DNA of 64,000 nucleotides from Candidatus Aenigmatarchaeota archaeon (GCA_021157845.1 JAGGVU010000006.1:4070-68069); one strand, 5' to 3'. Positions 1 to 47,613 are shown, counted from the first letter of the stretch. Notes: a model not told the origin generated them from the sequence alone. Made by a program: numbers and translations.

Positions 1-1989
1 TGGTGTTGTTGGACATGTTCCGCAGTCCTCTGGACATAAGTCACATGACTCATCTGCCTGGCATATGCCATCACCGCAGTATGTACCTGTATATGTACAG
101 GTCATAGTTTCTTCTGGTTTACCTGCTGTTGTGCCGCAATTGTTTAAATCCGTACATGTTCTTGTTTGTATACCAGCGGGTGAGCACTCAGACCAATCAG
201 TACATGACCAATCTGCTGTACATGTGGTATATCCTCCGCCACCTCCACCGCCTGTTCTTGGCGTATAGCAGGTTCCATCTGTTCTGCACGATTGCCCAGA
301 TGGACATCCGCAGGTTGCACAATTATCAACTAAGCTTCCACTATCACAATACTTGGGCAAAGTAGAAGAACATTCACCATATAGAGTTCCGTCAGAGCAG
401 ATTTCTTTTCCGCCGAGTAAATAAACGCTGTTTTCTGGATAAATTTCAGCACAAACTGTATATGGGTCTGAATTCTCATGAACAGTTGTTAATTCTTCCC
501 AGACTCCGGTTGTAGCGTTTTTATGATAGATTCTGAGACGATAATCAGGCCATGACGTTCCACTGACATTATAACACAACATCATTGTAGCATCTGTTGT
601 AACATTTATCTCATAAGCAGAGTCCGGATAATATGCTGTATTGGCCGGATAGTCAGATGGTGTTACAGGCGATATGTCATTAACAGTCACTGATTCAGGT
701 GAAGCTGAATGTATTATTAAAATAGCTCCATAAGACTGCATAGACCCATTTGTGAAATCATATAGACTTGTATTTATATGTCCGGGTACGAATTTGCTAT
801 GATCTGAAAGTATGATATACCGTGCTCCATCTACCTGTCCGCTAAAGCTGTAATCTATATCAATATGGGTTTCATTACGGTTCATGGCTCTGTCCATTAA
901 TCTTGCATAATAAACATGACTGCCTATTGGGAAATGATTTGGATCATCCCACATTGAAATATTTTTTGTGCAGGACCAGTTATTATTATTTTGATTACAG
1001 CTCCAATCTGAATTTATTTGATATTCACTGGAGTTAAAGAAATATTTTGAAGAGCCAGTGTATTTCAGAATATCGACAGTTGGTGGATTTTTGTCAAGTT
1101 CTCCAACAAGCTCATAGATATTTGATCTTGTTGGTCCAACGTCTCGGGCATCTATGCTCAAGATAAGCGTATCCCCATTTTTTGCACTATTAAAATTTAG
1201 ACTTGGTTTAGAATTATCTATATTTAACGGATCTGCTCCTGTCCACACTACATCTGGCCATCTACCAGTTGAGTCTGTTATGATATATCTGTATAACCCT
1301 TCTGCACTTAAGGAGGCAAAGTTAAGTTTCATGTTATTGCCTGTCCCATTTACAGTCAAATTTGCAACAGGTATTTTACAACCATTAATCACATCTCCAA
1401 CATCAGTTGCAGAAGTGCAATTTCTCAATTCAAACTTATGAACAGTTCCTGGAGTTGCGTAGTTGGTTGATAAAACAGGATATCCGGTAGTCCATTTATA
1501 TAAGCCCTCAAAGGTGTTATTTAAATAAAATCTCAAAACAGCAGGCGTATCTGGTGCTGACCCGGACAAGTTTGCAAACCCATATACATAATAATATTTG
1601 TCAGCTGAGTCATACATGACAAATTCGTAAACAGATACCAGGGCAGTAACTGAACCATCTGTAACTTCTGCATGATCTGTTAACCAGTCAGCAGATGAAA
1701 TCCAAGTTGGCTGCGAAGAGCGGTTTTTATAAAGAGAATATGACTTTACAACAACTCCATTACTATTTGTTATAGTCAACCTGCAGGAAAGCTGGTTGTT
1801 TTCACAATGAAGAGAATTTCCTGTCATATCAAATATAATTGGTGGCTTATTCAGATAGCTGTATGCATCTTTGTTGTTAACAACAAGCTGAGAAATAAGA
1901 TTGTCATTGGATTGCTGTATAGCTAAAGCCACACCTGCAAGTTCTATGATAACTAAAATAATTCCAACTAGCTTAAATATTTTATTCAT
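1..1989 (-). CDS. Secreted Cys-rich surface protein, 3'-truncated by the window edge (N-terminal 663 aa present). It has a signal peptide and a Cys-rich C-terminal region with a TSP1-like motif.
   Basis: ATG at 1989 on the minus strand, followed by an uninterrupted 663-codon frame running off the window start (not in the ORF track because no stop lies in the window). N-terminus MNKIFKLVGIILVIIELAGVALA is a signal peptide or anchor. The 5'-most 300 nt of the window encode GGGGGG and many Cys (WSCTDWSECS...QTRTCTD...NCG). Confidence 0.6.
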   Translation of the reverse strand, partial: MNKIFKLVGIILVIIELAGVALAIQQSNDNLISQLVVNNKDAYSYLNKPPIIFDMTGNSLHCENNQLSCRLTITNSNGVVVKSYSLYKNRSSQPTWISSADWLTDHAEVTDGSVTALVSVYEFVMYDSADKYYYVYGFANLSGSAPDTPAVLRFYLNNTFEGLYKWTTGYPVLSTNYATPGTVHKFELRNCTSATDVGDVINGCKIPVANLTVNGTGNNMKLNFASLSAEGLYRYIITDSTGRWPDVVWTGADPLNIDNSKPSLNFNSAKNGDTLILSIDARDVGPTRSNIYELVGELDKNPPTVDILKYTGSSKYFFNSSEYQINSDWSCNQNNNNWSCTKNISMWDDPNHFPIGSHVYYARLMDRAMNRNETHIDIDYSFSGQVDGARYIILSDHSKFVPGHINTSLYDFTNGSMQSYGAILIIHSASPESVTVNDISPVTPSDYPANTAYYPDSAYEINVTTDATMMLCYNVSGTSWPDYRLRIYHKNATTGVWEELTTVHENSDPYTVCAEIYPENSVYLLGGKEICSDGTLYGECSSTLPKYCDSGSLVDNCATCGCPSGQSCRTDGTCYTPRTGGGGGGGYTTCTADWSCTDWSECSPAGIQTRTCTDLNNCGTTAGKPEETMTCTYTGTYCGDGICQADESCDLCPEDCGTCPTTP

Positions 1990-2074
1990 ATCCACACCTG
2001 AAATTTTTTATTTTTATCATTTAAATGATTATTTTCTTCGGTTTTTTGCCACTAAATAAATATAAAACAAAAAA

Positions 2075-5000
2075 CTAAAAATGGAGCTTCAATATCTTTC
2101 CTTTTGATAATTTGGCAAAGGAAACCAAAGCTCCCAGCCCGACTAATGCTAATATTGCTATTAACGCTGAATGTTGAGATATAAATGGCATGCCTGTCGG
2201 CGACCAGAATCCTGGTGCTGCTGCTACAGGTTCGGTCACGCTGGCAGATACAGCCTTTCCTTCTTTAGTCATATATATGGCTTTTGTTTGCTCCCAATTT
2301 CCTGTTGTATCCTTTGCGTGCACGAAGATACATCTTCCAGCATAGTTTCCGGATACAGTAGTCATTACCTCTTCTAGGTTCTTGTCATTGTCAAATGAGC
2401 TATCAAACGGAAGCAATTTATATACAGAGCCTGTTCCATTATTAAATGAACCGTCTGCATTATACATAGAGGTTAAAGGTGTACAGTTTTCTCCTATATT
2501 TTGTCTAGTGTTTCCTGGTCCTATGTAAATTTCTGCATCTGTTATATTGGAACTTATGTCCTTAACAACGGCCTTGACTGTTGTTGTAGCTCCACCACCA
2601 TTTACAGTCGTATCATCCAGTGCAACTATTGTTTCTGGTGGTGTTCCATCAACTGCTAATGACATAGGTGCTGAAGTTGTTTTATGTCCTGCTTCGTCTT
2701 CTGCCTCAACTACTACACTATATGTTCCATCAACTCCTATCTTGTTTGCGCTTATTGTTCCTGAACCAGTACCAGTTAAATCAAAGTCTGCGAGTGTGTT
2801 TCCGTTTACATCTTTAACATATGCTTTTACATTCTTGATATTTGCCTCTGTTATCGTACAGCTTATATCTGCTGTCGGATTCACAGAATTTAGCGGATAG
2901 TATGATATAAGGTTCTTTGTTAATGAACACCCGCTAACACTAGGAGAGGTTGTATCAATTGTGAAGTTTGTTTTTCCATAGCCTGTTAAGCTCTGTTCTG
3001 GTGAATCAGCTATGTTTCCTGCTAAATCTGTACATTTTATATAATATTCGTGGAACCCTTCTGACAGTCCTGTCAACTGTGCGTAATGTGCAGCTGTTCC
3101 CTGACCATCTGTAAAGTCTGTATATGTTCCGCTCAAGCTTGTACTGTATTTGCAGTTTGTTGCTTCTGTTGTTATAACATTTAGGTTAACAGTTCCGCTG
3201 GATATATACTCATCCGATGGGCTTATATCAATTATAAGCGGCTTTGTAGTGTCAACTGTAAACACAATTACAGATGACGAATCCATTACATTTCCATTTA
3301 CATCTTTACATCTTACAAAAATTGCATTTGCCCCCTCTATTACTGTTCCTGCTGGCAAACTAATAGTCTTTGGTGTACCAGCTGTTGTTGTGAACTCATT
3401 TGCCTGCGGCATATTTGCAAATATCTTGTCATTTGTGTCCCATCTGCATGTTGCATCAACATCTGTTTTAACTGTAAATTCTGATGGGGTTGATGTCTGG
3501 TATCCTGATGGTCCGGTCGTTTCAATTGTAGGTGCTATTGAATCAATAGAAAATGTTGATGTATGTATATAATTGATATTTCCTGCCTTATCCTTACAGC
3601 CAAAGTATATGGTATAACTCCCATCCTGCTCAACTGTCTTTTGACCATAATGGTCTAATCCGTCAGATGTAGACATTAAATGATCCATGTTATCATACGT
3701 AACATCATTTGTGCTGAATCTACACGATGTCCACTCATCTGTGTGTACAAAGGTTGCAAACGATCTTGAGTTTTGTGCTCCACTAGGGGTTGCTCCACTT
3801 AAGACTGGAGGTGTTGTATCAACTGTCAAACTTCTTGAGCCTGACCAGCTTCCCCAGTTTCCTGCGTTATCCTGAGCTCTTACCTTCCATGTGTAGGTTC
3901 CTTCACCAAGATTATTGGTTGGGGCGAAACTTGTTGTGCCTGCTTGATACGAAGCGGTATCTATCATTATTTCATACTGACTTACTCCGCTTATCTCATC
4001 TGTTGCAGAGCCCCAGACAAATGTTGGTGTCTGATCATTCGTATAATAATTAACTTCTGGTGAAATTAATGCTGGCACCGAAGGTGGGGTTGTATCAACT
4101 ATAACAGTTAATAAGTTGGACCATTCTCCTTCGTTGCCTGCGCTGTCAACCGCTCTGATTCTATAATAATATGTTCCATCTGGTTTTCCGGTATATGATT
4201 TTGACGTTGTAAGACCGACACTTGTTATTACGCCGTTTTCCATAATGTCATATCTCAATATCCCGTTTGTATCGGTTGCCGGTGTCCAGCTTATTTGATA
4301 GCTTCCGTCTGTATCATAAGGTGAATTATCTATAGAAGCGCTTGCTGTTACAGTTGTCGGCTCCATCGTGTCTACAATTATATTTTCAATATTGGACCAC
4401 CCACTGCATAAGCCGACTTGGTCACATGCTCTAACTCTTCCATACCATGTTCCATCAGGAACTTCGCTTATTGAATATGAAAGACTGCTTGTTTTGCTTC
4501 CCAACACGCCTGTCGTAAATGTCTGATCCATACTGACTTCTCCTTTGTAATAGTCTATTCCTGAACCAGTTCCGTCATCTGAAGCAAACCAAGTCAATGT
4601 CAATACACCGTCATTGTCATATCCGTCTCCATCCAGATCTGATACGTCTAATATCGGAGGAGATGGTGGATTATTATCAGACACTATTTGTATTGTAGTT
4701 GAATCTCGGCAGTTTCCAATTGCATCACATCCTCTAACCTTTAGTGTATGAGCACCGTCAGCATAACTGCCCGTATTCCAAGGTGCTGTCCAACTATTGT
4801 AATATGATGTGTCATTATGTATCATAGTCCCATCTACATAAAATTCTACATATTGTGTTCCGCTAACAGCGTCACTTGCTATTGCTTCTATTGTAACAGT
4901 TCCTGTAGCAATGCCTTGATCTATCGGTTTTACAATAGCCATTGAAGCCATAGCTCTGTTGTCAACAACAACTGTTGTCATCTCAGAATATCCAACATTA

Positions 5001-8000
5001 CCAACAGAGTCGCTTGCTTTTGCCTGCAAGCCGTAAGCTAATCCGTCTGTTGCTAATGTAGTATCCCAGTTAAATGTACATGATGGTCCTGTGCAACTTG
5101 GATTGGTCCATGTTTGACCGCCATCTGTTGAAACTTCAGCTGTTGAATAATCTATATGTGAATCAGACATTGTGAATGTTATTTCAACAATTCCTTTAAC
5201 GAACTGATTGTTTGAAGGTGTTGTAATTGATATAGCAGGCGGTGTATTATCAATATCTATAGTTCGCAATGGATCTATAGTTACATGACCTGCATAGTCA
5301 ACCATGCTAACTCTTATATAATATGTTCCATCTGCAACTTCTGTTGTGTCCCAGTGTACCTGATATTGCCATTGTGAACCAACAGGAGTTTTGGAAGCAT
5401 CCACATTTATTTTGTACCATGGTCCTGAATTGCTTGTTGAATATTCAAAGTCTGTTGCAACTACATCATTGTCAGAAGTTGTTGCTGTTATTTCTATTGT
5501 TCCGCTTACTGGTGATGTAGGAACATTAACCGTGAAACTTGGTGCTGTGCAGTCAACTATTATAGGAACTTCAGTCGAAGTTAATGAATTTCCTTCTCCG
5601 TCTGTTGCAGTCGCTTTTAACTTCGTCGCTCCGGTATGACTACAGGCATCAAAGCTCGCTGTCCAAGGAGCACTTGAATCTGTTGAAATTGTGTGCCAGC
5701 TTCCATCATAATATTCAAATCCAACACTTGCCACACCGCTTAATCTATCAGCTGTAACAGCTTGTATGGTTGTTGTTCCAGTCAAGTATTGGTCATGATA
5801 AGGATATGTAATTGCAATTGATTCTGCTCCCGTGTTATCAACACTGACAACTTTAACTTCTGACTCTCCTAGGTTGCCTGCAACATCATTTATTTTTGCA
5901 ATTATCGTATGTTCACCATCCTGGTAAGATGCTGTGTTCCACGTATATGTACATGAAGTTGCTCCACAACCAGTTGGTGAAACAGATATTCCATCAATCA
6001 ATAGGTCTGCGGTTGAGGTATCAATTGCATTATCAGCATATGTGAATGTTATAGCTATCGAACCACTAACAAACGTTGTTGTTGGTGTTGTAATTGAAAC
6101 AACAGGAATTGTTCTGTCAACAGTTATGCTTTTAACAGCAGACCATGGTCCAACATTTCCAAGTTTATCTACTGCTCTCACTCTAGCAAACCATGTTCCA
6201 TCTGTTGGTATGTTATTGAAAGATGCGAACAACGATGTTATTGGACCACTGCTTAACACGCCTGTCGTAAATGTCGAATCCATACTGACTTCTGCCTCAT
6301 AATAGTCAACACCTATTCCAGTATCTGTTGCTGCTGGCCAAGTTACGCTTATATCTCCATCACAGTCATATCCAGCATTGCAATTTGAAGATTGTGATGC
6401 ATATATAGATATCTGGCTTGGTGCTGTGTTGTCAATACCTACTGTAACAATGTCAGATTCTTGACAATAATTATTTATATCGCAAGCATAGGCTGTGATA
6501 TCGTGTGACCCATCTAATACAGTTGTTGTATCCAGACTAATATTCCATTTTTCGTCGCTATGATCGTTGTCTGTTCCTATATATGTTCCGTCAATCCTGA
6601 ATGTTACATTCGCAACACCAGAAGCGTCCCATGTATCAGCTGTCAGCTGGACTGTACCAGTTAACCAGTCACCTTCTTCTGGGCTGACTACGTGAACTTC
6701 TGGAGGAATGGTATCAACTAATATAGCATCTATAACAACCTGATACAGGCTGTCTATAACTATTCCATCTTTTGTATCAGCTTCATAACCTGGCTTTGAT
6801 ATGTGTATGTGAACTGGGTTGTCCACAGGTCCTGATAGTGCATTCAACGGATATAAAACAACACCGTTTGGTCCGTCTTCCCAGCTGAAATCCGGCAACC
6901 ACCACTGTTCTATGCTTCTATTTACTGTGCTGTTCCAGCCGTTTTCTCCGTCTGTTATGATGAACGTGTTCGTGTAGCCCAATCCTGACAAGCCATAGTC
7001 CATAGGTGATATGAACAATCTCATAGCCATATCTCCTTCTGTTGGTGTGCACTTGTCAGGAAGTATGTCTATGTAATAGCCTGGCTTGAACGTGTAGGAG
7101 AATCCCGAACCCGTACAATAATCTCCATCTGACACCGCAATAGGCGTATAGCCAACACCGGGTTTATATACTCCTATGGTGTTCCACCGGGCGTAATACT
7201 TTGGGTCTCCCAAACCAGTTCCTGGACAAAATGCGAAGTCGTAGACACCATATTCATATTTTAATTGCTTATCAAAACTATACGATGTACAACCAAGCAA
7301 CGAAACTGGCATGACTGTTCCACCGTTCTCGACACATTCCTGATAAGTCTGAGGACCTGTTCCAACAAGTGTAGGTCCATCACTAACCAGTTCCACAGGT
7401 ATCCAGCAGAAGTATTGGTCTGAGTCTGAAGGTGGTAATGTATGTCCTGAATCCTCAACAACTACTGTAAATCCTTCAATTGGGTGGTCAAACTGGTCGT
7501 AAGCATTGACTCTTAATGAATATGGCATTCCTGAACATTGTTGAGAAACTACACCATCAACAGGCCCTGTTGGTGCAAATGTATCACAAGTGACATTTCT
7601 GCTGAAATTTAATGCGGTCTGGTAATTACTTGATAATTCAATGTCATCTAACGCCTCATCCGGTCGTGTTGATATTCCATGCTTAGATGTTCCCCTTGTT
7701 ACATAACCGTCTTTCTTGATTTCAAGATAATAATCGCAGTTATTACCAATCGCTGGTATGTAATATTTCTGGGTTATCGGGTCCCAAACATAATCCACAT
7801 GTGGAAATTCATCATCTGGATCTGGGTCATCATCATAATAATAATCAGGTAAACCATCACCAGTTTTATAAGGTGCATAACATACAGGTGGATTTGGATC
7901 TGATGGATCTATTGGTATATCTGGATTCAAAACAATCCTTGCATCATATATCCTATGATTATATTCTGTTGTCTTTTCGTCCCAGATATCTAATTTCAAT

Positions 8001-11000
8001 GTATACAATAATCCATCTCCGTTCAATCTCTGTGGCGTATCATCGTCACAGTATGTTGCATAGGTAGTGTAACCGCCTTGTGATGGATCCAACGAGAATC
8101 CTCCAGCGACGTTGTTCTCATTTTTGACGCAATGTCTATCATAATCACCCCACATTACTGTCTTCTGGACGTTCGGGTCAGGTGTGACCTCTATATCTTC
8201 GTCAACGTAACCCGGACCGTGTGCTGTTAATGTTATTGAGGACGTACCTTTTATTGGTAAGAATAGGTCTGTGTCCCCATCTCCTCTTGGGTCGCCATAA
8301 TGGCTAGAGGTACCAGCAGCGTAATTGCGGCCTGTAGGATCTGCAATTCTTGTAGGATCGCTCACGTCGACATCTGTCTCTCCTATGACGAGGCCACCAG
8401 TGGAATCTGCTATATCTAACTTAGTACCCAATTCGTTGTAGATGTCAACAACTCTTATTGTGAACGGATTGTAATATTCATGATAATATTGTGCTTGGTC
8501 TGTAATAGTATCGCTGTCATATTGGTATACATAACCATCTAGATACTCTCTCATATCTACAGCAACACTTGCCGAATTTCCAAATCCGTATGCATCTCCT
8601 GGGCTGTATGCCCAATACATATATTCATCATTAGAGTTATCAGCATCACAGTAGCCTGTTTCTATTGGTGAACCAACAGTTGTGCCTTCTGTGCATGTCT
8701 GCACACCACCATTTGTAACTTTGAGTTCGTATCCTTCCTTAGGGTTGTTTAATTCATCAGAAGCTTTAACTTTTATAGTGTAAAGCATGGTAATATCGTT
8801 CGTAGTGTCTGAAGATATAGACTCGTCATTAATTGGATAATCTACCCAGCCTGTCTTCTCATAGAGGAAATCATAAGTTCCTGAAGCCAGGTATAATCTA
8901 TAAGACCCTCCAGAGATTGTATTAGTCCACATAGTTGCGTCTCCTGATGAGGAGCCTTCCCTTGCTGAGACCAAAACATTTGTCAGCCCGGTGTTTTGGG
9001 CTTCTTCTGTCACTATTCCGTCTTTCAAAACATCTAAATCTTCTGTTATTGTTCCGCCTTTTGTACTGTCATCAAAAACATGGTAAATTATATAATTATT
9101 AGATATATCAGCGTCTGTTATTTTCTTGCAGAATCCTCCCGGCATATAATCATGTGTTCCAGAGTTATCATGCAAATATTGCAGGAAGAATTGTGCATAA
9201 TCCGCATTGCTATAAAATCCGTTATCTGATGGGTGAACTGTTTCTGAACTTAACTTTGTGCTTCCACAATTGTAAGGAGTTCCATCAGAGTCATAAATTT
9301 CTATTGTATCACTTCCGCCTTCAAGATTGGAATGTGCTTCGCCAATTACTTCACCGACATCCATTTCCCAGGCATTTCCGCCTGTCGCTGATGACGCAAC
9401 AGGCCACTCAAATACTTTCTTTCCGTTAGAATCGCAGAAAACTGCATAATATGTTGAGTCGTCTGCTTTCATGTAAACTGTGTAATCAGGTGAGCCACCT
9501 GTTTGTATTAAATCAATATCATGTAAGTTTGAATTAGATGCCACTTCTGTCTCAGCAGCACTCCAGCTTACAGAACATCCTTGTCCTGAAATTGTCCATA
9601 ATTCTACCCATCCGTTATTTAAGTGCTCATCAACATCTCCTGATAATGAATCAATATTATTGGTATAAGTCCCAGCTGTGCTCCAGTCTTCGCCATATAA
9701 TGTGAACTCAAGACTTCCGCTCACATAGTATTGAACATCAACAGAACCATCAGTTATTGTAAACAATTTATATACATGGTCTGTATCAAAGTCTGCCGTG
9801 TATGCATCGCTGCCATCAATGGCTCCGTTTTGGTCAAGGTCAGCAGCTACTTTTGTTATATCTGTTGTTGCTTTTCCTGTTTTCTCAACAACCAAATCTT
9901 TTGTTTGTGCATAATTTGCGCCAATTGTGAAACCGTTTCCTCTTGAAGCTAAACTGTCAGATGTTGTTGCTTTGATATAATATGTTGTTGAAGTTGGATT
10001 TGTCTGGTCTGCTTCAAAGTATTGTGTATAATCTGGTGTACTTGTTCCTGTTGGATTTACTGTCTCACTGCTCAATTTGTTGCTTCCGCAATCGATTGTA
10101 TCCCAGACTTCTATTGTTCCGCCATACAAATCTGAATGCGTGTCTCCAGATAATTTTCCAACATTAAATACATCACCATCCAAGCTTCCTGTATTTGTTT
10201 GTTCTTGGTCTCTTGTCAATACTACTGGATTAGTATGGGCATCGTACCACCAGTTTCCGTTCAATGCACTAACAGAATCAAAGTACATCGCATAAACTGA
10301 TGGGATTGAGCCATCTGTTTCGGCAAGTGCAATTGTCCATGGAGTTGCGTCATGTAATGTAATTGTCTTAATGTCATTGTGTGTTGTTCCGGTCAGTCTA
10401 TTATCCAAGTTTAGGGTTATCATATCTCCGCCTGCTATTGCATCGATAGCATTGTTTGCGTTGTTTGTATCAACATCTAATCTCCATGACACAAGCGAAG
10501 CAGAATCTGTCATTTTCAAATCTATATTGTCAACATCTATCGGTGTCGCCAATGAGTCATCTGACTCTATGAAATAAACTTCATAACTATCTAAACCAGT
10601 ATCTCCAGAGTCTGTGTAGAAGCTTGTTGAGCTTAATAATGTTCCGCCAATTCTATCTGTGTAAACATCAAATCCTGCATTGTTGAAATTATCATTTACT
10701 GTTCCAGACAATTTTGCAACATCTATTGTGAATGTTTGCCCGCCTGCCTGATCCGTAAAACTCCATTTTAATACAACGTTTCCAGATTTACAGAATAGAA
10801 TATCATAAGTTCTGGAGTCGTCTTCAAAATAAAGTGTATACGAACCACTTGATGATGTTGTTTGAGTGTAATATAATCCTCCGCATGCACCGTCTGCATA
10901 TGTACTAGGTGCGGTGCCATACTCAAGTTCAACAGAATCTATGTCAGTTGGTATGGTACCAGTCACTTTTGAGATATCATTTGTGTATGTCGCTTCTGAT

Positions 11001-13822
11001 GGGAAACTATCATCTAATGTTAGCAATAAGCTTGGAGTAGAATCATAATAATTAACATCAACATTGTTGTCCACTATTGTGAATAAATGATATTTATATT
11101 CAGAGCCTGTGCTAACAACTTGCGTATATGCGTCATTGTCATCTGGCAAAGAACCATCCCAGTCAACCGCAACGTTTGCTATGTCAGATGTTACAACACC
11201 GGTTTTATCAGCAACTAAATTTTGAACAGCTGTCCCGCCAGCATTTGTTGAAAATGGGTTGCCGCATGTTGAGAAAGTGTCTCCATTGTTCATTATCGTA
11301 TTTATGTAGTACTGCTCATAACTTGGAGTAGTTGTTTCAAAATATTGCATATAATCGTTTGTTCCTCCAATATATCCATCATCATTAGGTTGTCTGTCTT
11401 CTGAAGATAGTTTATTTGTGCATAAAGAATCAGCATAAACTTCTATGTTATCTGAGCCGTCTCCACTATTTTCTAAATTAGAATGTGCGTCACCGACTAG
11501 TTTTGCAACATTAAAGGTTGCACTATTAAGTGTGTTTGAGTTTCCAGTCCAGCCTGTTCTTGTTCTGCTCAAAACAAGATTAGGTGTGCCTGCTGTGTAA
11601 AGTTCGTCATAAACATCTAAATACCAGTTAGAGCCGGTTATAGAATCAAAGTACATTTTATAAGTGTGAGGCCAAGTCCCTGTGATTACTAATTTAACGT
11701 AATCTCCATTTGTTTGTTCACTCAAAATTATATAATTAACACTAATTGGAAGTGTTCCTGTCAGAGTGTAAATCATGTCAAGCGTGATGTCATCTCCACC
11801 AGAAATTGTATCGGCTTTGTCTCCGTCGCTCGGATTATTATCAACATCCATCCTGAGTGTATATTCACTTGACCCAGAGTCGTCTTTGAAGTAGACATCT
11901 ACATTTCCGTCGGATAAAACACCACCATCCGTGGTTGGTGTGCATTCAAAATAAGCATAATAAGAATCGTCATTCGCTCCGCTATTATCTGTCACAAAAT
12001 ATAATGAATTTAACGGAGTTCCAGGATATGAATCATAAATCCATACCGGTGAGGTGCCACCGGTGTTGAAATTTTCATCTATATTTCCAGATAATTTTGC
12101 AACATCTAGTTGAATATTAGATGCAAACATTTTTGTTCTTGTTAACACTGTTTGCGTTGAGTCACGAAATTCTATATCTGTATTGCCTGACAAATCGGAA
12201 TACATCCTATAATTTCCGCTTCCGTCTGGAGTTGTCTTTGCATCTTTGAAATCATCCCAAAATCCAGCATCTTGATCGATATCAGTTTGTATAAGAGTTA
12301 TATCAGTATGAACAGTTCCATATAGTTTATCTTCTGGGCTGTATAGTATTTCATCACCTGCTGAAGCAGATGAGCCATAAACCATTGTATCGTAAGTTGG
12401 GCCATCAATCTTTACATAAGAGTTTGCTAAACCACCTGTTGCATCAAAATATACCTCATATTCCCCTGTTGAATCATCTGGATCACCGGGATAAGACGGA
12501 TCGCTTATTTTGGTTGTAAACGAAGAGTCAGAATAAACTTCTATTTTATAACCTGTTTTCAAATCATCGTGGGCAGTCCCGTAATATTTTGCTAGGTCTA
12601 GTTGGATATCATGACTTGAACAGGTTGTACTGCTTGTATCAGGGATTGATAAAGATTTTGTGAACACTTCGCTGCCACTTTTCCAGAATTTTATTGTTCC
12701 AACAAAATTATCTTTTACATACAGAGCATAATTTCCGCTTCCGTCTGGAGTTGTTTTATATGTTAATGTTCCGTCGCTGATACTGACTTCATCTATATCT
12801 GTTGGTACAGTACCATATACCTTCACAACAGCGTCCTGCGAGCTAAAGCCTAATGACAATCCTTCAATTAAAGTTGGATTTGTCGCTGCAGTCGAATGTA
12901 AAGCCATTGTAATTATTCCAGAAGAAGGATTATCATAATAAAGGGTATAGTCATCATCAGAATCATCATAACAATCACCATCAGTTACGTAAGACATTCC
13001 TATGTTATTTCCATCAGAATCCCATACGTAGAGAATTGTACCATCAAAATCATCATGTAAATCTCCTTGTGCTTTCGTATCAGGTGCAAAAGTGGGATAA
13101 ACAGCAAAATTATTATAACCATTGGCTGAAGTTACGTTTATTATTCTTCCGGTTGATTTTGTTGCATCAAATTGACAGACATTTGTCTGGTCATTATCTA
13201 AATAAACGTAAATATTATTTGAAACAATACTTTCATCAATCGGATACCATTGGTCATATTCAATATTACTACCGCCGATACCTCTTAATTCAGTGTCTAA
13301 TCTCGTTGAGCCATGACAAACAAAAACATTATCAGAGTTTAGGTCTGAATGTAGATTTGTACCTTTAACTCGTGCTAAATCAATAACATAAGTTTGTCCT
13401 TCGGTCACACTTTTAGAATACCACGTTCTTAGTACACCAGTAGCAGTTCCAAGACAATAGTAGACATAAACTGTCTGCGAAGGGCTTGCTGTTAAACTAA
13501 AAGTAAGTGAATAATCAACATCATCGTCATAATTTGTATTTCCAACTCCACTTGTCAAAGCTAAAAGATTGGTCCCAGTATCTGCACTCCCATCACATGG
13601 TCCAGTTTGCGATGCATCATAAATTTCAATAGTATAACTAACATTTGTATCAGGCAAATCACCTCTTACAACAACATTAGTTGCTTGTGCAAAAACTGCA
13701 GAGCTAACGCTAATAAGGGTAAGCATGAAAACTGCAAATAACACCGCAAATTTAGTTGAATCAGTTTTATTTTCAAATGTGTTATTCATTTTCACACCTC
13801 CGTTAAATATGTTAAATATCAT
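2075..13822 (-). CDS. Giant modular cell-surface protein (3915 aa) with an N-terminal signal/TM segment, many repeated beta-rich modules, Ig/FN3-like ~100-aa repeats and a C-terminal TM anchor.
   Basis: Single 11.7-kb ORF with a GGAGGTG RBS 12 nt upstream of the ATG at 13822. The N-terminal hydrophobic segment is [23 protein letters not shown]. Repeated modules are visible in the translation (VAKLSG..NFN..G, KLSSE..., DNTPPxISITTP / DTTPPSV / [12 protein letters not shown] / [12 protein letters not shown]). The C-terminus is ...[43 protein letters not shown] (TM helix plus basic tail). Confidence 0.85.
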
Positions 13823-15207
13823 GCTGGAACACCTCCATAATCAGGGTCTGACCCATCAGGTATTCCATCATTGTCATGATCCGGGTCTGTTGGATATGAA
13901 TCTCCTCCAACACAGACACCACTTACCGTGTTTGGACCATCACATAGACCATCACCGTCTGTGTCCGGATTGTTTGGGTCTGTTCCTGCTGATATTTCAT
14001 CAGCATCTGACACGCCATCGCCATCTGAATCAGTTTGACCAAAAATCAGCCCCCAGACATACTTTAAGAATTTAGAAACACCCGTACTATCGTCTTCCTC
14101 ACAGATTGCAGGATAATTTACGTCAAAAACAGAAACGCAAGCCCATGGCTCATAGTCAACATAATCACTCACGGCATCTCCTCTCCCACCAGGATTTGTT
14201 GTTGCATGATAAGGTCCAGAAGAATCTCCCCAGTAATTGTTTTCTGCATTTACACTTGGACCTGTACTTGAAATACCTGCATTATCATTTTTTATTATAT
14301 TATTATAATTTGCAATAACAACACTTGTATCAGAAGCATCATATCCGACGGCAATTCCACTAGTACAGTCTGAAATAGTATTATTTATAATTGTAGCTGT
14401 TGTACCAGGACCATAGTAAGTAGTTACTAATATTCCAGCAGAAGTTGAACCATCAACACTTGCTACACCTTTACAATTTGTTATTGTATTATCTTCTACA
14501 GTTATATTTGCACCATTTCCAGCCTCAAATCCATAATCTAGAAAGTCACCGGTGCCTTTTCCTCTATATGTGCAATCTTTGATTAAAGTCTCTGCACTAG
14601 GGTTAAATGTGAAAACGCCAATTCTTTGTATATTATTAAATGTACAACCAATTACATCTAAATGTTGACCATAATTATTAATTCCACGACCATAGTACTG
14701 ATTAGCGTGTCTTATGTTTCTAAAATCACAGTTTTCGACACTGCCACCTGTACTGTTACCATGAAAATGAACTGCTGTACGAATATTTTTTCCTGTACCA
14801 TCAAATATTAAATTTTTTAAGGTAACACTTGCTCCAGTTATCTGGAACCATCCTCGACCATTTGCACCGATCGCATTGGCTAAGCCAGTATCTTCAGTTG
14901 GGTAGATTATTGGTTTATTTGAAGCATCTCCAACAATTGTTAAGTCTTTATTAATTATTGTAATTCCTTCAGTATATGTCCCGGCAGCAACATTAATTGT
15001 ATCTCCAGAAGTTGCAGCATCTATTGCCTGTTGTATTGAGCTGTATGTACAACCAGTTGGACAGACATTTAATGTAGCAGCAAAAACTGCAGAGCTTAAG
15101 CTACCGAGGAAAAGCGCAAATGAGAAAACCAGAACCATAAACTTGAATGAATTTTTAAACAGACCAAAAGCACCTCTGGTGCTTAGGCTAACAGAGTTAT
15201 TTTTCAT
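13819..15207 (-). CDS. Secreted right-handed beta-helix protein with C-terminal thrombospondin-type-3-like Ca-binding Asp-rich repeats; stop overlaps the giant gene start (ATGA).
   Basis: The ORF track gives 13819..15255; the likely true start is the ATG at 15207 (MKNNSVSL...), preceded by GGAGG 10 nt upstream. It has a signal peptide, parallel beta-helix-like repeats ([15 protein letters not shown]..., [13 protein letters not shown]) and C-terminal [12 protein letters not shown] / [10 protein letters not shown] / [12 protein letters not shown] motifs. Its TGA stop overlaps the ATG of the downstream giant gene. Confidence 0.7.
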
Positions 15208-15463
15208 AGTACACGACCTCCTAAAAAAAGTTAAACTAATTTTGACCACACCCATACCCTCATATTTGTGCCACTTAAAGAGGGTTAATATTTACTATTA
15301 TCTTATTATTGTAAAGGAATAAATCTTTATAAATGTATGTTTAAGTTGAAAGAAAAAAATATTTATTTAAAGATTTGCACTTGGTCTGTTTTTTTCCATA
15401 ATTTTTTACTAAATTTTATTTATCAATCTTTTTTTTCAAAACATACTTATTGAACATCAAGTT

Positions 15464-45613: not shown

Positions 45614-45731
<118 letters not shown>

Positions 45732-46239: not shown

Positions 46240-47613
46240 TTACAACCCTATTTTTGGCCTGCTTGAATAAGTTTTCAGTGAATGACCAGCTTTTTTGTGT
46301 GAAATAGAAGCACGCGGCAACTTTATTTCACCCTCAACACCAACAACTGATTTTAATTTGTAAGATAAAAGACGAATCTCGCCAGGCTCAAATTTCCTTA
46401 GCTTCCATACTAGTCTTGCACCGGCTTCATGCTTTTTGACAACAGGCTTTGGACCTTTCTCTACTACTAATGAAAATATGCTTGGAACAAAATCCTCTAT
46501 AATAACGCCAGATGCAACAGCCCCGGAATTGTTTTTAATTTCCAAACCAACTGTAAACTCAGCCCCTAAACGTATGCTCTTTTTTTGCATTATGAATTTT
46601 CTGATTTTTAAAATTTTTATCCGATTAAAATAAAACCATATAAGAAATATGAAAACAATTATCAATGCAATCAGACCAAAATAATTTATTTGATAGTTGA
46701 GAATTTTTTCTTCGCCCGGCGCCAATGTATTTATAACCCATATAACTTCGTTGCCTTCTATTTGTCCATTACCAAAATAGAAATTTTTACTTATGCCATG
46801 TATTGGCTCTGTTACCCTTATATTTTTTGCCTCTTCATTACCATAGTTTTTTACGATTATTTTTTTATCCAAACCAAAAAGAAGGCGCGTCTGCTCTTTT
46901 TCTATTTTCACAATTGGTAATGCTTCAACAGTAAAGGATGCTCGCTTCTCTTCTATCCCGACCAATCCCTTGCTTAAAGTTGCTGCAACTATATATGCAC
47001 CAGCATATATGTTTTCAGGCAAGCTAATTTCCTTTTCAAATATTTTTTCTTCACCTGCCTTTAATTCATCAATCTTATATTCAAATGATGATAATGTTGT
47101 CTTTCCATATACCTTTGAGAAGAGTTTTAGGTTTTTTAAAGGAATTGTTCCTTCGTTTTTTACACCAAATGTTAGCTTAATAGTTCCCAAAGGCTTTGCC
47201 TCGCCCTCTACTTTTATGGTGTCAATTGTTACGTCATATTTATTTTTTACCTTAATTAATCTTTCAATTGTCTTCTTTTCTTCTCCTGCTGTCTCTACAT
47301 TTATCTTTATCTGATAAACCTTGGCATCAACGTCTTTCCCAGGAGATATGTAAAGTTTTACTGTTTTTGAATTGAGAACATTTGGAGCATAATTTTCAAG
47401 GGTGAACCATGTTTTCCAGCCATCTATTGTTATGGAAAAACGTCCTGCCTCGTCTGTAGTTATGAGTATATTAAATACACCCTGGCTGCCTTTTTCAACC
47501 TCCAGAACATTTGGCGTTACGTTGACTGAAAAATCAGCAAAAGCAATACTGACAAACATAGCAACGAAAATGCAGAATAATAAATATTTTTTCATTCCAA
47601 CCATCAAAGCCAC
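46240..47613 (-). CDS. Secreted/membrane protein with a signal peptide, beta-rich ectodomain, one central TM helix and a basic cytoplasmic tail (457 aa)
   Basis: ORF; signal peptide MKKYLLFCIFVAMFVSIAFA; central helix LIALIIVFIFLIWFYF. Confidence 0.6.
   Translation of the reverse strand: MALMVGMKKYLLFCIFVAMFVSIAFADFSVNVTPNVLEVEKGSQGVFNILITTDEAGRFSITIDGWKTWFTLENYAPNVLNSKTVKLYISPGKDVDAKVYQIKINVETAGEEKKTIERLIKVKNKYDVTIDTIKVEGEAKPLGTIKLTFGVKNEGTIPLKNLKLFSKVYGKTTLSSFEYKIDELKAGEEKIFEKEISLPENIYAGAYIVAATLSKGLVGIEEKRASFTVEALPIVKIEKEQTRLLFGLDKKIIVKNYGNEEAKNIRVTEPIHGISKNFYFGNGQIEGNEVIWVINTLAPGEEKILNYQINYFGLIALIIVFIFLIWFYFNRIKILKIRKFIMQKKSIRLGAEFTVGLEIKNNSGAVASGVIIEDFVPSIFSLVVEKGPKPVVKKHEAGARLVWKLRKFEPGEIRLLSYKLKSVVGVEGEIKLPRASISHKKAGHSLKTYSSRPKIGL

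Follow-up and report, generated by a model that had tools for sequence, protein, structure and literature searches.

The stretch of DNA analysed here (64,000 nucleotides (nt) from a Candidatus Aenigmarchaeota genome; hereafter the window) opens with a locus that encodes a giant surface protein and two smaller secreted proteins. The three open reading frames (ORFs) lie on the minus strand at window positions 1-15255, in keeping with a first-pass annotation, made from the sequence alone, that had described three co-oriented secreted proteins filling the first 15 kb. The gaps between these same-strand genes are 29 nt (gene 1 to gene 2, counted from the M12 start of gene 2 described below) and 85 nt (gene 2 to gene 3). 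The giant and the two other surface-protein genes probably form an operon. NCBI lists the giant as MCD6215721.1 (3904 amino acids (aa)) and gene 3 as MCD6215720.1, both as 'hypothetical protein' of a Candidatus Aenigmarchaeota metagenome-assembled genome (MAG). The remainder of the window is archaeal housekeeping in content (RpoB, RpoA', EF-2, SecY, SRP54, Rad50/HerA, ThiC and CDP-archaeol synthase), and this content and the NCBI label support the earlier assignment of the locus to the cell surface of a small-genome archaeon. The neighbours of the trio in the window are NUDIX, MatE and SecY genes.

13819..15255, minus strand: gene 1, secreted right-handed beta-helix protein with a C-terminal thrombospondin type 3 (TSP3)-type Ca-binding tail (ORF and Pfam)
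2075..13822, minus strand: gene 2, giant surface protein, longest ORF 3915 aa, isoelectric point (pI) 4.05 (ORF call)
1..1989, minus strand: gene 3, secreted Cys-rich protein, 663 of its 769 aa inside the window (ORF; full sequence from contig L001)

The giant protein and its predicted anchor

The exact 3915-aa product of gene 2 is encoded by four contigs, which come from two ENA assemblies and one JGI metagenome (three samples), and is present in the NCBI MAG as well. The nucleotide sequence of the gene on the four contigs showed 0 mismatches to the window over 11,748 nt, and no length variation was seen among them. Because the same assembly was obtained on four contigs from three samples, the giant ORF is not a chimera across its repeats, one of the outcomes that the first-pass annotation had named as fatal to its proposal. 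One further contig, L007 (JGI Ga0187538_156235, sample 3300017593), lacks one T of a TTT run (window 3113..3115, minus strand, from the contig comparison), and its gene call is thereby truncated to 3582 aa. This contig is the evidence in favour of the alternative that the giant ORF is an assembly artefact or a pseudogene, either joined across repeats or interrupted in the real population. However, the deletion lies approximately 360 nt from the end of L007 and is followed by further mismatches; we therefore read it as an assembly error or a minor allele. Since the intact identical ORF is carried by the other contigs and the MAG, and an assembler would not be misled by DNA repeats as short and diverged as those in the gene, the alternative has almost no chance of being correct. 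A phase-variable homopolymer was also considered for this site and rejected, because the deletion is in a run of only three T near a contig end.

At the DNA level, the longest repeat of the locus measures 68 nt, with 82% identity between copies, and tandem arrays are absent. It is the protein that is repetitive, and its repeats are old; they are too diverged to offer an obvious substrate for homologous recombination. The suggestion that internal DNA repeats give scope for recombination-driven variation is thus not upheld, all the more so as the gene is 100% identical on the four contigs. In other samples, we observed a variant of gene 3 that is approximately 92-97% identical with scattered substitutions (ENA contigs carrying P0054; locus L011). 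Related strains whose surface proteins have diverged must therefore occur, although the giant gene was recovered as one identical sequence only. GC content is 37-41% over the giant gene (window 1-14000 compared) and 32-37% elsewhere (14001-64000); the higher value may reflect the Asp/Gly/Thr-rich composition of the protein rather than a foreign origin.

The features of gene 2 are listed below; all residue numbers of the giant refer to the 3915-aa ORF.

13795..13801, minus strand: Shine-Dalgarno sequence GGAGGTG, 5 nt before the M12 ATG at 13789-13787 (read directly)
13688..13789, minus strand: signal peptide, aa 12-45, with a 21-aa hydrophobic core (translation, hydropathy)
8792..13687, minus strand: N-terminal array of the ~175-aa di-beta-sandwich module, aa 46-1677 (self-BLAST, iteration of a hidden Markov model (HMM))
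9353..12097, minus strand: two ~455-aa super-repeats, aa 576-1036 and 1037-1490, 35-38% identical (self-BLAST)
6728..8791, minus strand: orphan middle region, aa 1678-2365, ~690 aa, Cys-, Asp- and Pro-rich (no detectable homologue)
2603..6727, minus strand: ~14 tandem immunoglobulin (Ig)-like/FN3-like domains, aa ~2366-3740, period 92-105 aa, with V-D-x-T-x-P linkers (Pfam)
2207..2215, minus strand: PGF tripeptide, aa 3870-3872 (sequence)
2078..2167, minus strand: C-terminal membrane helix (aa 3886-3903, 18 aa) and basic tail (aa 3904-3915, 12 aa) (hydropathy)

The GGAGGTG site lies downstream of the gene-1 stop codon (13819-13821). Because of its spacing to M12, gene 2 probably starts at the ATG at 13789, giving a protein of 3904 aa, as called by NCBI, and genes 1 and 2 are probably 29 nt apart and not overlapping. 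The ATGA overlap from which translational coupling had been proposed is present for the longest ORF, but with the likely M12 start it is formal only. The signal peptide is of the Sec type, with cleavage probably at VFA|QA as placed by eye.

The description of the giant as modular and secreted was borne out by its signal peptide, internal protein repeats and beta-sandwich domains, while the repeat unit itself had to be redefined. Instead of six repeats of 250-300 aa, the N-terminal array consists of a unit of ~175 aa, present in about seven full copies (aa 249-395, 404-568, 568-757, 766-942, 1029-1210, 1215-1383 and 1483-1677) and three to four half copies by HMM iteration (including aa 143-241, 943-1024 and 1384-1485), in part arranged as the two super-repeats. 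Self-BLAST matches between these repeats reach E values down to 3e-23. The middle region that follows has no Pfam match, no PDB sequence match and no counterpart in other family members. A word-indexed search of 5.8 billion proteins returned zero matches to it, a weak negative since the parent protein was also missed, and its single-sequence AlphaFold2 model had a mean predicted local distance difference test score (pLDDT) of 30. The Ig/FN3-like domains of ~100 aa, predicted earlier, were confirmed well above threshold: tandem matches above the gathering score were obtained to Pfam Big_13 (E 6e-39, 133 bits, three stretches), Big_7 (E 9e-34, 116 bits, five stretches) and Big_3_3 (E 7e-17, 62 bits), which identifies these as bacterial-type Ig-like domains. 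The region also has an NCBIfam OmpL47-type barrel match and internal self-BLAST repeats, and the PDB sequence search of this Ig-rich half gave nothing useful. The order along the chain thus places ~14 Ig-like domains next to the membrane, the orphan region of ~690 aa in the middle and ~18 beta-sandwich domains of the module array at the distal end. From its translated features, the giant is a Sec-exported protein with one predicted C-terminal transmembrane helix and a short basic tail. It is very acidic and consists almost wholly of beta-sandwich domains, put at about 40 in all, of which half come from the module family described below.

The C-terminus had been taken for a variant of the PGF-CTERM signal, with PGF followed 10 residues later by a helix and a basic tail. 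All of these elements are present, in this order, within the last 46 residues, but the spacer between PGF and the helix is 13 polar or mixed residues, and PGF does not abut the helix. If the signal were real, an archaeosortase A (ArtA)-like enzyme would cleave the giant there and install a lipid anchor. We regard this as very improbable. At E <= 10, none of the NCBIfam sorting-signal models, PGF-CTERM included, matched the last 60 or the last 286 residues, and none matched the whole giant at E <= 0.01. No archaeosortase-like gene was found in the 64-kb window, the part of the genome covered by this check. The multi-pass proteins encoded there are MatE, SecY, CarS, a VTT-domain protein, an amino-acid permease and one 182-aa five-helix protein without a Pfam match; no archaeosortase-sized multi-pass membrane protein is among them. 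The adjacent gene 3 protein, the only other one seen with a C-terminal anchor, ends in a helix and an even more basic tail without PGF, and a chance PGF in 3915 residues is not improbable. Archaeosortases have been found in a subset of Euryarchaeota (PMC6098224). Because of the missing model match, the 13-residue spacer, the absence of an archaeosortase from the window and the PGF-free tail of gene 3, we conclude that the C-terminus of the giant is best read as an ordinary type-I anchor.

A rare family of archaeal giants

The module was characterized using an alignment (A2) of 15 units, seven from the giant and eight from P0002, the only homologue returned by the word-indexed search. Structural modelling, one of the checks proposed in the first-pass annotation, gave a confident AlphaFold2 model of one module (aa 766-942; pLDDT 89.6, predicted template modelling score 0.86) with two all-beta domains. 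The Foldseek search of this model against the PDB gave no significant match (best E >= 1.8e-3, template modelling score <= 0.3), and the non-significant neighbours were generic tandem beta-sandwich proteins of the fimbrial, adhesion and Ig types, including SiiE. The units did not match any Pfam family, apart from a weak CarboxypepD_reg match (E 3.5e-4) in one of the 15.

When 1.84 billion representative proteins were searched exhaustively with a profile of the module, 48 members of the family were detected, 35 of them at E < 1e-30. Most are giants of 2000-6644 aa with 6-39 matched module stretches. In the giant itself, 10 stretches match the A2 profile; this score is circular, as its own repeats are in the profile, and independent support for the module comes from self-BLAST and from the matches in unrelated contigs. 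The gene contexts of family members, as far as examined, are all archaeal (TrmB/MJ0538, Alba/S17e, Nre or an archaeal MAG record). A conserved N-terminal stretch matched a single GTDB genome, that of archaeon isolate S5B6_HD70. Because only 48 members were found among 1.84 billion proteins, with no Pfam family and no significant fold match, the ~175-aa module is, by these sequence searches, a rare and previously undescribed repeat family. Our literature search on Aenigmarchaeota likewise returned no description of the module family, of the anchored downstream partner described below, or of the orphan 690-aa insert and the six-Cys domain.

The members of the family differ in their content of N-x-S/T sequons, which was compared in the giant, P0002, P0005, P0007, P0010 and P0012. 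The giant contains 15 sequons against 46 expected, an approximately 3-fold depletion (z -5.4), and its closest relative, P0005 (4231 aa), is also depleted (z -5.2). In the other members compared, sequons are strongly enriched (z +5.6 to +12.8). This distribution suggests that different family lineages may be under opposite selection on N-glycosylation.

The flanking genes and their counterparts

13846..14031, minus strand: three DxDxDG Ca-binding loops of gene 1 (aa 409, 431 and 459), TSP3-type tail (regular expression, Pfam TSP3_bac)
14236..14772, minus strand: beta-helix core of gene 1, aa 162-340 of the 478-aa ORF (best Pfam Beta_helix stretch)
15216..15222, minus strand: Shine-Dalgarno-like AGGAGGT, 8 nt before the M17 ATG of gene 1 (read directly)
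232..252, minus strand: Gly7 run preceding the six-Cys domain of gene 3 (sequence)
133..222, minus strand: six-Cys domain of gene 3, motif C-x3-W-x-C-T-x-W-S-E-C-S-x-G-x-Q-T-R-x-C-x-D, aa 590-619 onward (sequence)

The longest ORF of gene 1 is 478 aa. An ATG at 15207 (M17) gives 462 aa, the length assumed in the first-pass annotation and also called by JGI, and this start is probably the one used, because AGGAGGT stands 8 nt ahead of it. The protein was found to be a beta-helix protein with TSP3-like Asp-rich Ca-binding repeats, as had been described. Both Pfam matches are above their cut-offs (Beta_helix, E 1e-13, 51.6 bits against 25.9, two stretches; TSP3_bac, E 2.5e-8, 34.1 bits against 25, aa 409-430), and the loops of the tail fit DxDxDGxxD, so that profile and loops agree on a bacterial-type TSP3 repeat. 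Weak matches were obtained to the NosD family (NCBIfam) and, in the PDB sequence search, to pectinesterase 3uw0 (E 7e-5). The signal-peptide coding regions of genes 1 and 2 share 36 nt at 81% identity (13689-13724 and 15080-15115), and both stretches encode ...SSAVFA at the predicted cleavage site.

Gene 3 had been described as a truncated Cys-rich protein. The Cys/Trp motif is present and the gene runs off the window, but beyond the edge it is intact. The complete protein (769 aa) comprises a signal peptide, an orphan region of ~560 aa, the Gly7 run, the Cys-rich region, a membrane helix and a Lys/Arg tail. In the word-indexed search its only full-length match was to itself, and the PDB sequence search gave nothing useful. 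The domain in its Cys-rich region has a consensus of ~45 aa, C-x3-W-x-C-T-x-W-S-E-C-S-x-G-x-Q-T-R-x-C-x-D-x-N-x-C-G-T-x3-K-P-x-E-x-Q-x-C, with six invariant Cys and two conserved Trp. A pattern scan detected 32 instances at 28 metagenome loci (L011-L038), sometimes as two or three copies per protein, in proteins of 186-1572 aa of which about a third have a C-terminal anchor. We rejected this domain as a specific marker of giant-protein partners, because a neighbouring ORF of >2000 aa is present at only 1 of the 28 loci; among ORFs >= 300 aa at these loci, the module profile gave one marginal match (E 2e-4, a 346-aa ORF).

The resemblance of the domain to the thrombospondin type 1 (TSP1) repeat is real at the level of the motif, and the domain is widespread, but no Pfam model, TSP1 included, scores above threshold for it. 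Pfam TSP_1 did not match the 210-aa and 121-aa fragments of gene 3 at E <= 1. For the isolated 48-aa motif, TSP1_ADAMTS was the top match (13.7 bits against a threshold of 23.8, E 0.078), and it was the only Pfam family recurring among the instances (3 of 21, below threshold). A profile of 21 instances matched no PDB sequence. The two domains have in common six Cys within ~45-55 aa and the elements W-x-x-W-S-x-C-S ... G-x-Q-T-R-x-C, aligning with profile positions 1-51 of 55. They differ in Cys spacing and in the C-x-D-x-N-x-C-G-T...K-P-x-E-x-Q-x-C half.

The family loci for which DNA was available are the window, L005, L006/L008, L009 and L010. In every one of these, the giant gene is followed within approximately 10-120 nt by a co-oriented gene for a protein that carries a signal peptide and ends in a helix with a basic tail; a linker rich in Gly or in Pro/Thr usually precedes the helix. 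These downstream partners are 374 aa (L005), 526 aa (L006/L008), 430 aa (L009), 451 aa (L010) and 769 aa (window) in length, and some of them share an 'IPKSVA' domain (E 1e-7). The locus of P0005 (L009) mirrors the whole trio. Its upstream protein ends in a TSP3 tail that shares 53% identity with the tail of gene 1 across 76 aa (E 7e-15), and its downstream partner carries the six-Cys domain of gene 3 (51% over 45 aa, E 1e-7). In L008 (12090-15333), the giant and partner genes precede one for a T2SSE-type ATPase with fused 4Fe-4S ferredoxin domains and two for membrane proteins of the T2SSF type, a hint that some lineages may have a connection here with a type IV filament or secretion machine.

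The pairing of a giant with an anchored partner recalls the SlaA/SlaB pair of Sulfolobales, in which the gene for a large surface protein is followed by that for a smaller protein with a C-terminal transmembrane anchor. These archaea lack archaeosortase, which the window locus also appears to do without, and anchor their S-layer by the C-terminal membrane helix of one of its two subunits (PMC6098224). By analogy, the giant could be the canopy and the downstream protein the tether of an S-layer-like two-component envelope. This idea draws on the presence of both genes at all loci examined, on the lack of an own membrane anchor in most family giants and on the sequon enrichment of several relatives, which resembles that of S-layer glycoproteins. 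However, the window giant has a membrane helix of its own and is sequon-depleted, the downstream partners are heterogeneous, and sizes of 2000-6600 aa are far above those of known S-layer subunits, the family giants being several times larger than SlaA/SlaB. Pfam, PDB and Foldseek searches revealed no S-layer protein, SlaA/SlaB included, that resembles the giant in sequence or fold, and of the features of such a layer only the gene-pair arrangement was seen. We consider an envelope of this kind rather unlikely.

A cellulosome-like arrangement was also considered, in which the many copies of one module in the giant would serve as putative docking sites for the Ca-dependent TSP3 tails of secreted proteins. 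At two distant loci (the window and L009), the proteins encoded directly upstream of the giant resemble each other in a C-terminal tail of ~75 aa, which has three DxDxDG loops, and differ in their N-terminal parts, and the beta-helix head of gene 1 weakly resembles a pectinesterase. On the other hand, none of the other family loci has a TSP3 protein upstream, and the similarity of the tails may only reflect the repeat consensus. The chances of such a scaffold appear slim.

The surface proteins of the window have a pI of ~4.1, against 6.5-9.7 for the housekeeping proteins. The acidity is thus confined to the surface proteins and does not extend to the whole proteome; a halophile-type acidic proteome, considered as an explanation, was ruled out on these values. 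Elsewhere in the window, a second secreted surface protein (46240-47613, minus strand; 457 aa) has a signal peptide and Pfam DUF11 / NPCBM_assoc-type domains, and lacks a C-terminal helix-plus-basic tail. A 5S rRNA gene (45615-45728, minus strand; Rfam RF00001, 83.9 bits) stands alone between the RNA polymerase operon and this DUF11 gene. ARAGORN detected no tRNA genes in the entire 64 kb.

A candidate attachment apparatus

Taken as a whole, we favour the reading that the locus encodes a cell-surface apparatus of a DPANN archaeon (Aenigmarchaeota), in which a type-I anchored, acidic, adhesin-like giant fibre is accompanied by two accessory surface proteins, and we put its probability at roughly 0.6. 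The giant would be held in the membrane by its C-terminal helix, independently of archaeosortase processing, and would project from the cell as a very acidic (pI ~4), probably Ca2+-stabilised fibre. Beta-sandwich and Ig-like domains are roughly 4 nm long; with ~14 Ig-like and ~18 module domains, the fibre would be >100 nm in length. The flanking genes would supply accessory surface proteins made together with the giant, namely the beta-helix/TSP3 protein and the anchored Cys-rich protein, and of these the downstream anchored partner would be the part of the arrangement conserved throughout the family. The giant may mediate attachment to a host cell or surface; such an adhesin or host-attachment role is plausible in view of the analogous giant surface proteins in Nanohaloarchaeota (PMC10266531) and of bacterial repeat adhesins.

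Several observations weigh against this reading. A C-terminal membrane helix is missing from almost all other giants of the family, whose ends are formed by other conserved domains, so that intrinsic anchoring would be peculiar to this giant, and the ancestral role of the family may differ, for example as an envelope layer. Conservation does not extend to the upstream partner, in whose place a PKD protein or nothing is found in L005, L006/L008 and L010, and the TSP3 similarity between L009 and gene 1 may largely reflect the repeat consensus. Most six-Cys proteins do not adjoin giant genes. In addition, the orphan middle region of ~690 aa could carry a different activity.

Giant membrane-anchored Ig/FN3-rich proteins have been proposed as host-interaction factors in other DPANN archaea (PMC10266531), and giant Ig-rich surface proteins of DPANN are thus an already known kind. 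The closest parallel is SPEARE of Nanohaloarchaeota (e.g. SVXNc_0300, 9,409 aa; PMC10266531), likewise one huge secreted, membrane-bound protein made up mostly of tandem Ig-like/FN3-like domains from a DPANN archaeon, for which host binding was proposed. SPEARE has a VirB4/TraG-like ATPase domain and an adjacent gene for a VirB4-family ATPase (PMC10266531), whereas neither was found in the window giant or its neighbours (Pfam/NCBIfam); no enzymatic Pfam domain of any kind was found in the giant. Its distal half is instead built from the undescribed module family, and a single helix at the very C-terminus serves as its anchor.

Bacterial repeat adhesins such as SiiE of Salmonella and the Big-domain and OmpL47-type proteins of Leptospira share with the giant a construction as very acidic rods of ~90-100-aa beta-sandwich domains, and are reflected in its Big_13, Big_7, Big_3_3 and OmpL47 matches. 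In contrast to them, the giant is archaeal and is predicted to be Sec-exported and type-I anchored, not exported by type 1 secretion or anchored in an outer membrane or cell wall, and its N-terminal module and middle region have no Pfam or PDB counterpart. The likeness to the PGF-CTERM/archaeosortase A system (Haft et al. 2012, via PMC6098224) is limited to the literal PGF and the order of motif, helix and basic residues, and it differs from that system in the points set out above. What appears to be new at this locus is the ~175-aa module family, the downstream anchored partner, the orphan 690-aa insert and the documented six-Cys domain resembling the TSP1 repeat.

A broader proposal is that the module family marks an undescribed multi-component surface organelle of uncultivated archaea, composed of a giant fibre or scaffold, a dedicated anchored downstream partner that would tether it and, in some lineages, secreted proteins docked by a Ca-binding TSP3 tail. 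It would be a host-contact or envelope structure of DPANN-like cells, with cohesin-dockerin and SlaA/SlaB systems as functional analogues. We offer this as a speculative proposal, well behind the apparatus outlined above in likelihood.

Host recognition and attachment in DPANN archaea are largely unknown, and the comparative-genomics paper on Aenigmarchaeota describes no attachment factor of the giant type. The locus provides a concrete, reproducibly assembled candidate. The new repeat module, for which a confident structural model is available, recurs in ~48 proteins (mostly giants) of uncultivated organisms, and the anchored partner gene can guide the annotation of similar loci. The analysis also removes a tempting mis-annotation of the C-terminus as PGF-CTERM and documents a widespread prokaryotic six-Cys domain that resembles the TSP1 repeat. 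If the idea of a scaffold with its partners is true, these loci would represent a new type of archaeal surface assembly; otherwise, the giant would be one more giant beta-sandwich adhesin.

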